Assembly (NCBI GenBank): GCA_965248925.1
Contig: CBDFLE010000006.1
Span: 352,001 to 416,000, forward strand
Reading direction: 5' to 3'
DNA from: Candidatus Multivoradales bacterium
Lineage (GTDB): Bacteria > Acidobacteriota > Thermoanaerobaculia > Multivoradales > J023
DNA length: 64,000 nucleotides
Positions 1-45,122 of the stretch are shown one piece after another. Position 1 is the first letter of the stretch, and every line of letters starts with the position of its first letter. The notes under the pieces are model-generated. The model saw only the letters and a program-made list of their open reading frames with translations. It made no database searches and had not been told where the DNA came from. A program made the translations under genes and the position numbers.

Positions 1-3000
1 TGCTCGAAGCGCAGTCGCAGAGCGTCGTGGTTCGAGACCAGCCCCCGCAGCGCACCAGCCAGGCAGGCAGTATCCAGAGTGGCGGGCACGACGAGCAGCA
101 CACTCTGGTTGTAATGCGAGTAGGGCCCCGGCTGAGTGAAGAAACGCTGCTGAATCGGCGTTAACTCCACCGCCCCCCGAGCCGGCCCTTGATCGATCTT
201 GCGCCGGCCATCATCGGTCGTGACCGGCCGCGCATGAGACGCCAGCAGGGCCACGGTCTGGTGCTGAAACAACTGCTGGGCGGTGACTACGAAACCTGCC
301 TGACGGGCCCGTGACACCACTTGGATGGCGATGATGCTATCGCCGCCAATCTCGAAGAAATTGTCGTGAATCCCTACCGGCCGGCTATCATCACGACCCA
401 ACATCCGCCCCCAGATCTGGCACAGAGTGACCTCGGCGGGGGTGCACGGCGCGGCGTGGCCAGCCACCCCAGCGACGGCCAGCTCCGTCATGGAGTCGAC
501 CGCCGCTTGCTCGAGCAGGGCGCGGCGATCGACTTTGCCGCTGGCGGTCAGCGGCAGAGAGTCGAGGAAAATAGCCCGGCTGGGCAGCATGAACTCAGCC
601 AGATCATCAGCCAAAAAGGCCCGCAATTCAGCGATTGGCCGCCTTGCTGTCACTGGCGTCAGGAAAGCGACCAACTGCCGTGAACGCCCCTGCTGGTGCA
701 GCAGAACCAGCGCCCGATCGATCGTCGGATGCCGTTCGAGAGCGACCTCTATCTCCCCCAGCTCGATGCGATAGCCCCGCAGCTTGACCTGGAAGTCGAT
801 CCGGCCGAGGAAGTCGAGATCCCCATCCTCGCGCCAACGCACCAAATCACCGCTGCGATAGAGCCGGGCACCGCTTTCGGCAGCGGTGACAAAGGGGTCG
901 GGAATAAACCGCTCGGCGCTCAGCCCCGGCCGACCGTGGTAGCCGCGAGCCACCCCGAGGCCACCGATTAACAGCTCGCCAGGAACCCCGACTGGGCACA
1001 GTTCGAGACCACGACTCAGCACTCGCGCTCGGCAGCCGGCCAGCGGCCGGCCTAGGGGCAGATGGTCACCCCAAGCAGACTCGTCCTGGCTGCCAACCGG
1101 CGGATTCGCCGCCACCGCGAAGGTCAGCATGCCGACGGTGGCCTCGGTCGGCCCATAGTGGTTGAGCAGCCGCAAATCGGGCCGCAGAGCGCGCAGCTCT
1201 CGCACCCACGGGGAAGACGACGCTTCACCGCCGAGGATCAGCAGCCGCCGCGGCAAGATCCGCTCGGCCCGCTCGACACTGAGCAAGGCCCGCAAATGTG
1301 ACGGCACCAGCTTGAGGCAATCCACCGGGTGGAGCTCCAGATAAGCGGCGAAGGCCTCCGGCTCGGCCAGGCGCTGCTCGGCGATGACATGCAGCCGTCC
1401 CCCCGAGATCAGAGCGCTCAGGGTCATGGTGATGCCGAGATCCACCGCCATCGTCGACACCAGCGCAAAGCAGGCCCCGGCCCCGAGTTCCATCCGCTCG
1501 CCGATCGCCCGCAGGTAGTTGTGGATCGCCCGCTGCGAGATCGTCACCCCTTTCGGCCGGCCGGTAGAGCCCGAGGTGTAGATCACATAGGCCGGATGGT
1601 CGGGAAGACTAAGCAGCGGCGGCGCACTACTTGGCTGCGCCGCCAAGTGCCGCTGTCGATCGAGGCAGATCAGCCGCTGCCCGGCGCCGGGTAGAAGCTC
1701 ACGCAGGGCACTGAGGGTGACCACCAGATCAGCCCCGGAGTCTTCCAACATGAAGCGCAAACGTGCCGCCGGGAAGTCCGCATCGAGGGGCAGGTAGGCA
1801 CAGCCCGCCTCGAGGATGCCCAGGGTGGCGACAATCATCTCCAGACCACGCGGCATCAGCAGCGCCACCGGCCGTTCGCGAGTGACCCCCAGCTGTCGCA
1901 GTCGATGGGCCAACTGATAGGCCCGGCGAGCCAGTTCGGCATAGCTCAAGTGCTCGCCCTCGTAAACCACCGCCACTGCCTCACCCCGCTGCTCCACCGA
2001 CTCGGCGAAGAGAGACTGCAAAAGGGCTGGCGCCGACCCGCGCCGGCTGCCACCCTCTCCTGCATGCAGCAACTGCGCCCGCTCGGCCGCTGCCAGTAGG
2101 GATAGATCGGCAACCCGCGCCGCCGGCTGGTCGGCGAAGCCACGCAGCAACTGGAGGTAGTGGCCGACCAGTCGTTCGATCATCGTCGGGGCGAATAGAT
2201 CCGTGTTGTAGACCAGACCACCGATCATCCCGCTGGCCGTTTCACCCATGTTCAGGGTGAGATCGAATTTGGCAACGGCGTGCGCTCGCCCCCAGGGGGT
2301 GACGGTGAGCCCCGGCAGCTCGACCTCCGTTTGCGGCGCGTTCTGCATCACGAACATCGCCTGGAACAAGGCCGAACGGCTAGTGTCGCGGGGCGGATTC
2401 AGCGCTTCGACCAGCTTTTCGAAGGGCAGATCTTGGTGGGCGAAGGCACCAAGAGCGGTCTCCCTAGTCCTGGCGATGCGCTGCCCCACCGTGTCGTCGC
2501 CGACCCGCCGATGGCGCAGCACCAGGGTGTTGACGAAGAAGCCAATCAGCGACTCGAGCTCGACAAAGCCGCGATTGGCCACCGGCGTCCCCAAGTTCAC
2601 TTCCCGCACGCCGGCATAGCGCCCCAAAACCTCGGCGAAAACCGCCGACAGAAGCAGAAAAGGAGTGCTGCGAGTGTCTCGCGCCAATCGCTGTAAGGCC
2701 GCTGTCAACTCGGGATCGAGCTGGAAGTCGTGACGCGCGCCGCCGTGAGTACGCACCGCTGGCCGCGGCCCGATCGTCGGCAGATCGAGAGCTTGAGGCG
2801 CCCCCGCGAGCTGCTCCGACCAATAGTCCAACTGAGTTTGCAGAGCCTCGCCGCGCAGCCATTGGTGCTGCCAGATGGCGAAATCAGCATACTGAAGCGG
2901 CAGTCCGGCCAGCGGCGACTCGATTAACGCCTGCTCGGCTGGCGAGCTGAGCAATGCCGTATACAAGACTCGCAATTCACCGATCAAGAGGCTCATCGAC

Positions 3001-45122: not shown

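Follow-up and report, generated by a model that had tools for sequence, protein, structure and literature searches.

A candidate trans-AT PKS/NRPS assembly line with two mid-chain DUF-SH didomains in a Candidatus Multivoradales genome

Our analysis of a 64,000-nucleotide stretch of DNA (the window) leads us, with slightly better than even confidence, to an orphan two-gene trans-AT PKS/NRPS line made up of a 19,437-aa megasynthase and a divergent AT-ER gene. Its most likely product, predicted from sequence and unproven, is an N-acylated nonapeptide with two sulfur functions on its C8 acyl chain.

A giant megasynthase gene and its helper

The megasynthase is encoded by a single minus-strand ORF, which occupies window positions 3..45122 (the first 15,040 of 19,437 aa, from the ORF list and Pfam tiles) and runs past the window start. 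The whole ORF (58.3 kb, open to its stop) lies at G000:C6:338809-397122, extending 13.2 kb to the left of window position 1 and ending at G000:C6:338809; a stop-free frame this long cannot be attributed to chance. Pfam searches of 500-aa tiles at a 250-aa step (30 + 30 tiles in the window and 18 beyond it, 78 in total) gave the PKS order KS(Cys→His)-ACP, KS-DH-KR-ACP-DUF-SH, KS-DH-KR-ACP, KS-DH-KR-ACP-DUF-SH, followed by NRPS modules in the order C-A-T, three times C-A-T-E, C-A-T, and a C-A-T-E that is cut by the window edge. This colinear order is identical to that in the original prediction. By Pfam, the 4,397 residues beyond the window hold the remainder of the E4 domain, three more NRPS modules (7-9) and a TE (L001); the full megasynthase thus counts nine NRPS modules, of which five have E domains, and ends in the TE.

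Cis AT, ER and MT domains are absent from the megasynthase (PF00698 matched 0 of 78 tiles), and a discrete AT-ER gene adjoins it, the combination that characterizes trans-AT systems. This divergent helper (45369..47756, plus strand, 795 aa; Pfam and sequence matches) is a malonyl-type trans-AT (aa 1-290; GHSLG, GAFH) fused to a PfaD-family trans-acting enoylreductase (aa 311-759) of the PfaD/MlnA/DfnA type. A 54% identical AT-ER homologue adjoins the related megasynthase of genome G035. The originally proposed unbranched C8 chain, made from malonyl units only, is supported by the GHSLG and GAFH motifs of the discrete AT and by the absence of an MT.

The 18 flanking ORFs contained, by Pfam, neither beta-branching (HMGS) genes nor a disulfide-forming oxidoreductase. 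An ORF at 48117-49418 (no family) and the subtilase, GT2, acyl-CoA thioesterase and RHS genes were considered as cluster members and set aside, as nothing equivalent to them lies beside the G035 homologue. The locus has transposase genes on its flanks.

The megasynthase contains a tandem duplication of ~7.9 kb, with copy 1 at aa 13,300-15,936 and copy 2 at aa 15,937-18,573 (98-100% nucleotide identity). The part of copy 1 that falls in the window lies at 1..5222 on the minus strand (self-alignment, with weak read support). This repeat of modules 5-6 as modules 7-8 could be over-assembled, in which case the peptide would have seven instead of nine residues; public read data give a weak hint that two copies exist. 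The stretch is present in public contigs of four runs, all from one sample, and none of the public sequencing runs listed as carrying it is an RNA run. The flanking transposase genes and the near-identical internal repeat would both fit a gene that is silent or an assembly artefact, and hence yields no product. We consider this very improbable, as no stop interrupts the 58.3-kb frame and all its catalytic motifs are intact, other genomes contain giant homologues that are likewise open, and the public contigs contain the stretch.

Two DUF-SH didomains on a short polyketide chain

All megasynthase features lie on the minus strand. The gene opens with a loading KS, KS1 (aa 28-403; 43914..45041; Pfam and motif alignment), in which the active-site Cys is replaced by His (DAAHASS) while both catalytic His motifs are retained; the His is kept in all five N-terminal KS homologues. 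With the AT loading malonyl on every ACP, we read KS1 as a decarboxylating primer that would convert malonyl-ACP1 to acetyl-ACP1 (ACP1: aa 632-696; 43035..43229; Pfam and motif check), although we know of no precedent for a decarboxylase role of a KS with this Cys-to-His change. KS2 (aa 749-1119; 41766..42878; Pfam and motif alignment) has the intact Cys/His/His triad also present in KS3 and KS4, and is followed by DH1 (aa 1363-1650), KR1 (aa 1934-2109; B-type by its IRD motif) and ACP2 (aa 2215-2279), together at 38286..41036 (Pfam and motifs). The expected output of KS2, KR1 and DH1 is crotonyl-ACP2.

Directly downstream of ACP2 lies the first DUF-SH didomain. DUF1 (aa 2345-2660; 37143..38090; Pfam, structure-database match and alignment) belongs to PF09924/DUF2156 and is a homologue of the MprF aminoacyl-phosphatidylglycerol synthase domain, and SH1 (aa 2700-3130; 35733..37025) is a PF01212 PLP-dependent beta-lyase domain with PLP lysine K2936. 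The second didomain, DUF2 (PF09924; aa 6274-6594; 25341..26303) and SH2 (PF01212; aa 6629-7060; 23943..25238; PLP lysine K6872), both placed by Pfam and alignment, likewise comes directly after an ACP. A genome profile search found the PF09924 matches at aa 2373-2644 and 6299-6579, both above the Pfam cut-off. The SH part matched PDB entry 9cen_A, titled 'Polyketide Synthase Protein' (E 4.3e-66), as well as tyrosine phenol-lyases (~1e-35), whose PLP lysine lines up with that of the SH; we found no literature report on 9cen. The DUF part matched MprF-type synthase domains at ~1e-8. K2936 and K6872 share an alignment column that is at least 95% conserved across 77 sequences, and most family-conserved columns are kept in the DUFs (66/74 in copy 1, 69/74 in copy 2) and in SH1 (56/57) and SH2 (52/57). 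PF09924 after a carrier, PF01212 with its PLP lysine, and a discrete AT nearby are features of DUF-SH-containing AT-less PKSs. Both didomains look like intact leinamycin-type DUF-SHs, in line with the prediction of two sulfur-installing didomains, each after a DH-KR-ACP module.

By analogy, DUF1 would catalyze conjugate addition of cysteine or thiocysteine to C3 of crotonyl-ACP2, and SH1, using PLP, would cleave the C-S bond of the amino-acid part to leave -SH or -SSH. The available portion of PMC8479088 reports that the SH domains of three leinamycin-family PKSs (LnmJ, GnmT, WsmR) were assayed as thiocysteine/cysteine lyases and favour thiocysteine adducts 50- to 106-fold, yielding -SSH. The conjugate-addition role of the DUF is proposed only, even for leinamycin, in the parts of PMC8479088 and PMC7618002 that we could consult. 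LnmJ is given with the same CP-DUF2156-PLP layout in PMC3870968, and PMC11260071, which cites the SH study, brings no more on sulfur modules. Because the characterized SH domains install -SSH, S4 or polysulfide forms of the product are as likely as S2.

The thiolated chain would pass to KS3 (aa 3158-3529; 34536..35651; Pfam and KS tree) and the only extending module without a DUF-SH, comprising DH2 (aa 3770-4045), KR2 (aa 4275-4458) and ACP3 (aa 4581-4641) at 31200..33815 (Pfam and motifs). KS4 (aa 4708-5089; 29856..31001; Pfam, alignment and PDB comparison) is followed by DH3 (aa 5410-5703), KR3 (aa 5884-6067, LDD motif) and ACP4 (aa 6157-6218) at 26469..28895 (Pfam and motifs). DH1-3 retain HxxxGxxxxP and DxxxQ, KR1-3 retain the NADPH and Lys/Ser/Tyr/Asn sites, and the ACP serines are present. 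KS3, KR2 and DH2 would produce a 2-enoyl C6 chain that the trans-ER reduces, KS4, KR3 and DH3 would extend it to 7-thio-oct-2-enoyl-ACP4, and DUF2-SH2 would add the second sulfur at C3, giving a 3,7-bis(sulfanyl or hydrodisulfanyl)octanoyl chain that C1 hands to the NRPS.

The DH2-KR2-ACP3 module is the likely target of the trans-ER. Against a single reference KS, PksJ-KS2 (PDB 4na1), KS4 scored 564 bits, KS3 432, KS2 387 and KS1 381, and the next-best solved single KS for KS4 reached 463 bits, ~100 below PksJ-KS2. KS4 and PksJ-KS2, its closest solved relative, also have in common an insertion before the second His motif. PksJ/BaeJ-KS2 accepts a saturated intermediate from a DH-KR module, according to the text of PMC10999986 available to us. 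Since the AT-ER gene adjoins the megasynthase and KS4 is far closer to PksJ-KS2 than KS1-3 are, module 3 is probably fully reduced, giving a 3,7-dithio-octanoyl chain and not an oct-4-enoyl chain or a 1,3-dithiol; this use of the ER is assigned from a single reference KS together with gene adjacency. AT-ER fusions also occur in clusters where ER use is unclear (DisD).

These data bear on the originally proposed dienoyl chain, in which the trans-ER is idle, an enoyl and then a 2,4-dienoyl intermediate form, and DUF2 acts either by 1,4-addition to give 3,7-dimercapto-oct-4-enoyl, with FK228-like spacing, or by 1,6-addition to give a 5,7-dithiol, which would then cyclize to a 1,2-dithiolane. The lack of a cis ER and the three intact DHs and KRs are compatible with it, trans-ER use is unreadable from sequence, and in the KS tree (below) KS4 falls in a set dominated by KSs that follow DH-KR-ACP, whose labels are blind to enoyl versus reduced chains. 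We nonetheless consider a dienoyl chain unlikely: the AT-ER fusion is conserved with the cluster, KS4 matches PksJ-KS2 ~100 bits better than other solved single KSs and 130-180 bits better than KS1-3 do, and the two DUFs would need different acceptor types despite having the same conserved columns. Of the acyl chain originally proposed, C8 with sulfur at C7 and C3 stands as the best reading, while its enoyl and dienoyl stages and the 4-ene are weakened by the AT-ER gene and the KS4 scores. Also weakened is the 1,6-addition to a 1,3-dithiol or dithiolane, as the closest match of KS4 to a saturated-chain KS, albeit one reference, is an outcome named beforehand as counting against these details and the 4-ene; two sulfurs on a C8 chain are not refuted by it.

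We built a tree of 155 KSs, drawn from the window and from 80 related loci gathered by DUF-SH similarity. One clade (support 99) united 72 of 72 KSs that directly follow a DUF-SH, KS3 included, and 0 of 500 label shuffles scored as low. KS4 fell outside this clade, in a set of 71 rows made up mostly of KSs downstream of DH-KR-ACP, in which labels cannot separate enoyl from reduced. Given how the loci were chosen, the post-DUF-SH clade may reflect a co-inherited DUF-SH-KS block instead of substrate type. The position of KS4 also led us to set aside a dithiolane formed already in module 3 by addition of the 5-SSH to C3.

The 3,7-dithio-octanoyl reading is exposed at one further step, as the free C7 thiol or persulfide could add unaided to the C2-C3 double bond before DUF2 acts, giving a thiane or dithiepane ring. 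The thiol reaction, an intramolecular thia-Michael addition onto a 2-enoyl thioester that forms a six-membered ring, is easy by general chemistry. Such cyclization, skipping or inactivity of one DUF-SH, or retention of an uncleaved cysteine adduct would leave a product with one sulfur or another sulfur form. Of the conserved columns, SH2 departs from 5 of 57 and DUF1 from 8 of 74, and DUF activity is undemonstrated in any system as far as the accessible part of PMC8479088 goes. However, the PLP lysine and most conserved columns are retained in both didomains, and the double DUF-SH head is found again in genomes G017 and G035 and, divided between two contigs, in G004, a recurrence that speaks for selection on each copy. 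We regard this outcome as quite unlikely.

The predicted nonapeptide

The specificity positions of the A domains were set by commonly known motif anchors in our own A-domain alignment. The resulting codes agree with those we take to be canonical at 10 of 10 positions for A2 (Ala), 8 of 10 for A6 and A8 (Asp; the deviations are at positions 299 and 330, an Ile/Val swap) and 9 of 10 for A9 (Pro), and we trust the anchors because these three codes match. The assignments of A1, A3, A4 and A5 are family-level guesses.

Module 1 (C1-A1-T1; 20649..23879; Pfam and A-domain alignment) has a Pro-like code, DVQMYAQVVK, and its C1 is LCL-like, with 34-35% identity to the LCL group. The remaining modules were placed by Pfam and alignments. 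Module 2 (C(LCL)-A2-T-E1; 15975..20582; DLFNNALTYK, Ala) reads as D-Ala; module 3 (C(DCL)-A3-T-E2; 11313..15881; DAFGVAGVCK) has a Phe-family-like code with an enlarged pocket; module 4 (C(DCL)-A4-T-E3; 6723..11219; DAWSLGNVVK) appears Leu-like; module 5 (C(DCL)-A5-T; 3483..6623; DAWVLGAVVK) is without E and appears Leu/Val-like; and module 6 (C(LCL)-A6-T and the start of E4; 3..3419; DLTKIGHVGK) reads as Asp. None of the nine A domains has a Cys-like code.

The C and E domains were typed by well-known motifs and N-terminal signatures. The five E domains group together (45-99% identity), and each is followed by a C domain of the group C3, C4, C5, C7 and C9 (46-98% identity); C2, C6 and C8 form a second C group. 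Epimerization is indicated where an E domain bearing HHxxxD and E(G/S)HGR motifs precedes a DCL-type C, and the subtypes of the C and E domains fit the D/L pattern. The motifs of E3 deviate (HHLVVDVVS, ESHGRH), with the catalytic His and Glu retained. An inactive E3, suggested by an apparent 'HHLAANGAA' site, was dropped, as alignment showed that site to be misplaced. The inferred peptide is Pro-like, D-Ala, D-aromatic-like, D-Leu-like, Leu/Val-like, D-Asp, Leu/Val-like, D-Asp, Pro. Its first six residues agree with the original prediction, and beyond the window it would continue Leu*-D-Asp-Pro-TE; the nine residues, TE, AT-ER neighbour, His for Cys in KS1 and the -SSH preference of assayed SHs all go beyond that prediction. 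The TE would release the product by hydrolysis or cyclization. Nothing in the peptide codes stands out as an O or N nucleophile, so a thiol is one candidate for that role.

Related loci, known systems and implications

Across 185,579 species genomes, a scan turned up 184 relatives; Lysobacteraceae and Acidobacteriota-labelled records contributed many of these. Most of the 80 fetched loci have one DUF-SH, on an ORF-initial ACP or after KS-ACP: 20 DUFs followed KS-ACP, and 38 were on an ORF-start ACP with no upstream KS in the fetched flank. Six DUFs followed KS-DH-KR-ACP and one more KS-DH-DH-KR-ACP-ACP, all in close relatives. Because the DUF rarely follows KS-DH-KR-ACP, enoyl-acceptor logic is not the common context of the family. 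DH-KR-ACP-DUF-SH occurs twice and feeds an NRPS only in loci L004-L007, L010 and L053 and genomes G004, G014, G017 and G035 (possibly overlapping sets). The same PKS head is joined to different peptides in G035 (17,277 aa, eight modules and a TE), G017 and G004 (five modules and a TE).

The family of the antitumour compound leinamycin (LnmJ, GnmT, WsmR) resembles this locus in having DUF2156/PF09924 and then a PF01212 PLP lyase after an ACP, a discrete AT, and a presumed chemistry of (thio)cysteine conjugate addition followed by C-S cleavage. In that family, as described in the part of PMC7618002 available, DUF-SH occurs once, in a last module KS-ACP-ACP-DUF-SH-TE, and acts on a beta-branched acceptor in an eight-module NRPS/PKS. 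In contrast, DUF-SH occurs here twice, mid-chain, after the single ACPs of KS-DH-KR modules, with a KS or C downstream, a TE only after nine NRPS modules, and another host lineage. The leinamycin-proper terminal module was not matched, and an HMGS cassette was not found among the 18 flanking ORFs. Non-leinamycin DUF-SH PKS families were reported in 2021 (Meng et al. 2021, 109 BGCs); in the material from that source to hand they too have a mid-chain DUF-SH with one ACP, and they lack a TE. A 2013 listing (PMC3870968) includes CP-DUF2156-PLP-KS proteins of Kordia and Lysobacter. The present layout may already be drawn in the supplementary figures of Meng et al. 2021. We found in the literature no characterized product of any non-leinamycin DUF-SH cluster and no description of a product made by a line of this layout.

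Bacillaene PksJ/BaeJ module 3 also combines KS-DH-KR-ACP with a trans ER on an AT-type protein and a next KS that is saturated-chain-specific, as far as the source text extends; the pathways are otherwise unrelated, and ER use here is inferred. FK228 (romidepsin), thailandepsin and largazole resemble the predicted product in having sulfur on C7 of a short acyl chain and a D-rich peptide. FK228 has a heptenoate chain with a C3 OH, takes its thiol from an NRPS-loaded cysteine starter, and has a disulfide to a peptide cysteine made by a dedicated oxidoreductase. Unlike that system, this gene opens with a KS, there is no Cys-like A code or flanking oxidoreductase, and the 4-ene is probably reduced. 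Of the proposed likeness to the FK228/largazole warhead, only the spacing survives; neither a cysteine starter in the gene nor a disulfide oxidoreductase among the 18 flanking ORFs was found.

Enzymes rarely install thiols or hydropersulfides on carbon chains, and this has been demonstrated only for leinamycin-type last modules. This locus appears to deploy the same didomain twice, mid-chain, on plain enoyl-ACPs from ordinary DH-KR modules, making it a natural test bed for DUF function, for -SH versus -SSH formation by SH domains outside Streptomyces, and for the programmability of DUF-SH. A dithiol or polysulfide lipopeptide with two D-Asp would be a new chemotype, with possible roles in metal binding, redox or as a thiol warhead, from a phylum with few characterized metabolites.

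A more specific proposal, which we advance tentatively and think rather unlikely, is that the product is a nonapeptide with a 3,7-bis(hydrodisulfanyl)octanoyl chain whose C3 and C7 become linked, as it collapses, through a cyclic di-, tri- or tetrasulfide, and that the TE possibly releases it via a thiol as a macrothiolactone. It would be the first product of a non-leinamycin DUF-SH and the first with two hydropersulfides on one chain; the KS(Cys→His)-ACP...DUF-SH...DUF-SH head would be a portable cassette, and the post-DUF-SH KSs a dedicated beta-thio-accepting clade. If this is true, an acidobacterial lineage joins a portable PKS head to different peptides, and the post-DUF-SH KS clade would be usable for prediction and engineering.

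Domain order and chain assembly

The minus-strand ORF that starts at window position 45122 runs stop-free for 15,040 aa until it meets the window edge, and its frame reaches a stop beyond the window, at G000:C6:338809 (contig C6 of the source genome, G000). The whole protein is a single chain of 19,437 aa. Pfam searches of 500-aa tiles at a 250-aa step (60 tiles in the window and 18 outside) placed, all on the minus strand, KS1 (aa 28-403, window 43914-45041), ACP1 (aa 632-696), KS2 (aa 749-1119) with its DH (aa 1363-1650) and KR (aa 1934-2109), ACP2 (aa 2215-2279), a PF09924 (DUF2156) domain (aa 2373-2644), a PF01212 lyase domain (aa ~2752-3048), KS3 (aa 3158-3529) followed by DH and KR, ACP3 (aa 4581-4641), KS4 (aa 4708-5089) followed by DH and KR, ACP4 (aa 6157-6218), and second PF09924 (aa 6299-6579) and PF01212 (aa 6684-6951) domains. 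C-terminal to these lies an NRPS tail, C-A-T, C-A-T-E, C-A-T-E, C-A-T-E, C-A-T, C-A-T-E, C-A-T, C-A-T-E, C-A-T-TE. This order bears out the one in the original prediction. RhiE-type KS-to-linker matches mark the protein as a trans-AT PKS; no cis AT, ER or MT domain was found in the 78 tiles.

In alignments, KS2, KS3 and KS4 contain the active Cys and both His motifs. KS1 retains both His motifs but has His in place of the Cys (DAAHASS); the same His occupies this position in all five N-terminal KS homologues from the related loci (throughout, the best 80 of 184 relatives). Since the Cys is absent, both His are present, and the domain opens the protein and is followed by an ACP, the most likely role of KS1 is that of a decarboxylating primer, which would yield acetyl-ACP. 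We know of no precedent for, or description of, such a "KS-His" primer; this position usually holds Cys, or Gln in KSQ domains. HxxxGxxxxP and DxxxQ occur in each of the three DHs. Each of the three KRs keeps its NADPH site, its catalytic residues and an xRD/LDD motif, which we take to be B-type, and the active serine is present in all four ACPs. The discrete AT has GHSLG and GAFH motifs, presumably malonyl-type. With this AT and no MT, the acyl chain should be an unbranched C8 built from one starter and three extensions.

Sulfur didomains and the predicted acyl group

The two PF09924-PF01212 blocks share 40% identity over 826 columns. Against the PDB, the lyase half matched 9cen_A, named "Polyketide Synthase Protein" (E 4.3e-66), as well as tyrosine phenol-lyases and tryptophanases (E 1e-35 to 1e-23), whose PLP lysine lines up with the lysine of S-L-T-K-D. 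The first half matched MprF/LpiA aminoacyl-phosphatidylglycerol synthase domains (E ~1e-8). In one study, leinamycin LnmJ is given as CP-CP-DUF2156-PLP(Beta_elim_lyase), and Lysobacter and Kordia proteins as CP-DUF2156-PLP-KS (PMC3870968). These matches and layouts identify our blocks as the "DUF-SH" didomain. A second study reports three SH domains to be thiocysteine lyases that favour the thiocysteine adduct over the cysteine adduct by 50- to 106-fold and leave -SSH on the product; it counts 109 DUF-SH clusters, among them three non-leinamycin families, and leaves the role of the DUF to future work (PMC8479088). By analogy, -SSH chemistry must be allowed for in the predicted product. That the DUF adds thiocysteine by conjugate addition is a proposal; its source also describes non-leinamycin DUF-SH modules as carrying a single ACP and lacking a TE, which holds for both modules here too (PMC7618002).

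Both didomains look functional. We aligned 82 DUF and 77 SH domains, drawn from the megasynthase and the related loci. Of the columns kept in at least 95% of sequences, DUF copies 1 and 2 retain 66 and 69 of 74 and SH copies 1 and 2 retain 56 and 52 of 57, the PLP lysine included. Elsewhere in the source genome are a stand-alone PF09924 gene (G000:C6:763859-764749, 123 bits) and a stand-alone tryptophanase-like gene (G000:C6:4753063-4754193, 31% identical to the SH part), possible evolutionary sources or housekeeping relatives of the didomain halves.

The original prediction was either a 3,7-dimercapto-oct-4-enoyl group, formed by 1,4-addition, or a 1,3-dithiol able to close to a dithiolane, formed by 1,6-addition. 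That prediction is partly supported: the best reading puts two sulfurs on a C8 chain, one at C7 and one at C3. Because the DUFs of modules 2 and 4 need a double bond as acceptor, module 3 is the one free for reduction. A divergent gene beside the megasynthase (window 45369-47756, plus strand, 795 aa), which we call AT-ER, encodes a protein whose aa 1-290 match DisD, PksC and FabD and whose aa 311-759 match the trans-acting enoylreductases PfaD, MlnA and DfnA (PDB E ~1e-70); this second part scores 363 bits against TIGR02814, under the full-length cut-off of 449. A homologue 54% identical across both halves adjoins the megasynthase of a related genome, G035. KS4, which takes the module 3 product, matched PksJ-KS2 (4na1) at 564 bits, nearly gapless and with a common insertion; its next best single KS scored 463 bits, and KS3, KS2 and KS1 scored 432, 387 and 381 bits against 4na1. 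In bacillaene, module 3 (DH-KR, without ER) delivers a fully saturated intermediate as the BaeJ-KS2 substrate (PMC10999986). Given two installed sulfurs, the adjacency of AT-ER and the likeness of KS4 to one reference KS, PksJ-KS2, make it moderately likely that the acyl part is 3,7-dithio-octanoyl rather than oct-4-enoyl. The 4-ene, 1,6-addition and dithiolane variants are thus disfavoured on present sequence comparisons.

In a FastTree of 155 KS domains (four from the megasynthase, the others from the related loci), one branch (support 99) has on the same side every one of the 72 KSs immediately downstream of DUF-SH, KS3 among them; none of 500 label shuffles scored as low. KS4 fell in a 71-row set, mostly KSs after DH-KR-ACP. 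The post-DUF-SH grouping fits the clustering of trans-AT KSs by incoming substrate. Since the loci were gathered via DUF-SH, a co-inherited DUF-SH-KS block explains it equally well. Under either explanation KS3 is the partner of a DUF-SH module.

Peptide and cluster limits

The nine A domains were aligned, and ten specificity positions in each were located by motif anchors. The codes are DVQMYAQVVK (A1, a Pro-like variant), DLFNNALTYK (A2, Ala), DAFGVAGVCK (A3, Phe-family-like, with two glycines that widen the pocket), DAWSLGNVVK (A4, Leu-like), DAWVLGAVVK (A5 and A7, Leu/Val-like), DLTKIGHVGK (A6 and A8, Asp) and DVQLVAHVVK (A9, Pro). A2 agrees at 10 of 10 positions with the canonical Ala code, A6 and A8 match the Asp code apart from I/V swaps, and A9 the Pro code apart from one I/V change. 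The C and E domains sort into three identity groups fitting the expected LCL, DCL and E types, with a DCL-type C after every E. HHxxxD and E(G/S)HGR are retained in all five E domains. E3 (aa 12349-12832, window ~6723-8060) is the most deviant: two core motifs differ from its four sisters (HHLVVDVVS, ESHGRH), with catalytic His and Glu retained, so the configuration of residue 4 is less certain. As a reading, the predicted Pro*-D-Ala-D-aromatic-D-Leu-Leu*-D-Asp holds; past the window edge it continues Leu*-D-Asp-Pro, then TE.

Part of this tail is a tandem repeat. Residues 13,300-15,936 and 15,937-18,573 are copies with 98-100% nucleotide identity, the ~7.9-kb unit being A-T-C-A-T-E-C, so that modules 5-6 recur as 7-8 (window 1-5222 and the adjoining left stretch, L001; approximately G000:C6:341,400-357,222). 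This is either a very recent event or an assembly issue. In public contigs from one sample, short copy-specific pieces are covered at roughly half the depth seen in the shared flanks, which weakly suggests two genuine copies. Should the second not be genuine, the peptide has seven residues.

Compared with G035, the only conserved neighbours are AT-ER and a 734-aa DUF5916/CBM9-like protein directly downstream of the megasynthase (G000:C6:336563-338767, minus strand; 16566-18767 of left stretch L002), 64% identical in G035. This protein, a possible envelope or export partner, is likewise found at a contig edge in the related genome G004. Transposase genes flank the locus on both sides, and Pfam found no methyltransferase, disulfide oxidoreductase or beta-branching gene among 18 flanking ORFs. 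Window 54977-64000, with a 1,562-aa RHS-repeat protein (54977-59665), a second RHS-repeat ORF (62708 onward) and integrase/transposase genes between them (60174-62895), is a region of mobile, toxin-like character and is unrelated to the cluster.

Spread of the two-sulfur head

Earlier publications already describe the DUF-SH didomain and its occurrence outside leinamycin. In the literature searched, no product was described for a doubled, mid-chain, lipopeptide-linked DUF-SH layout; the layout itself may appear in supplementary figures outside the search's reach. When 185,579 species genomes were scanned for patterns of both didomains, 263 stretches matched, 184 of which encode a relative; record labels were often Lysobacteraceae, Thermoanaerobaculia or other Acidobacteriota, Massilia, Pseudoalteromonas and Chitinophaga. 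Upstream of the DUF in the 80 loci we found KS-DH-KR-ACP (6), KS-DH-DH-KR-ACP-ACP (1), KS-DH-ACP (3), KS-ACP (20), a KS for which no ACP was detected (7), an ORF-initial ACP whose retrieved flank shows no KS before it (38) and other contexts (5). Thus, an enoyl made in the same module is special to the megasynthase's type, not general. The 38 ORF-initial loci usually read ACP-DUF-SH-KS-DH-KR-ACP-KS-DH, frequently under Lysobacteraceae labels; their sulfur acceptor may come from different starter chemistry.

Full didomain matches (E 1e-140 or better) occurred in five of 41 genomes near the source (G000, G004, G014, G017 and G035); the other matches in these 41, near 1e-30, were stand-alone tryptophanase-like genes. 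HMMs built from the megasynthase's own domains gave the architectures of G035, G017 and G004. The G035 ORF (17,277 aa) reads KS-ACP-KS-DH-KR-ACP-DUF-SH-KS-DH-KR-ACP-KS-DH-KR-ACP-ACP-DUF-SH, then eight C-A-T modules and TE. G017 has the same PKS head and ends at a contig edge, and G004 has the head with a five-module tail, split over two contigs. Matching architectural pieces appear in L004-L007, L010 and L053, some of which may be the same records as these genomes, so the counts are not independent. With such heads attached to differing tails, the two-sulfur PKS head, as judged from domain architecture, is a conserved cassette joined to different peptides within the lineage.
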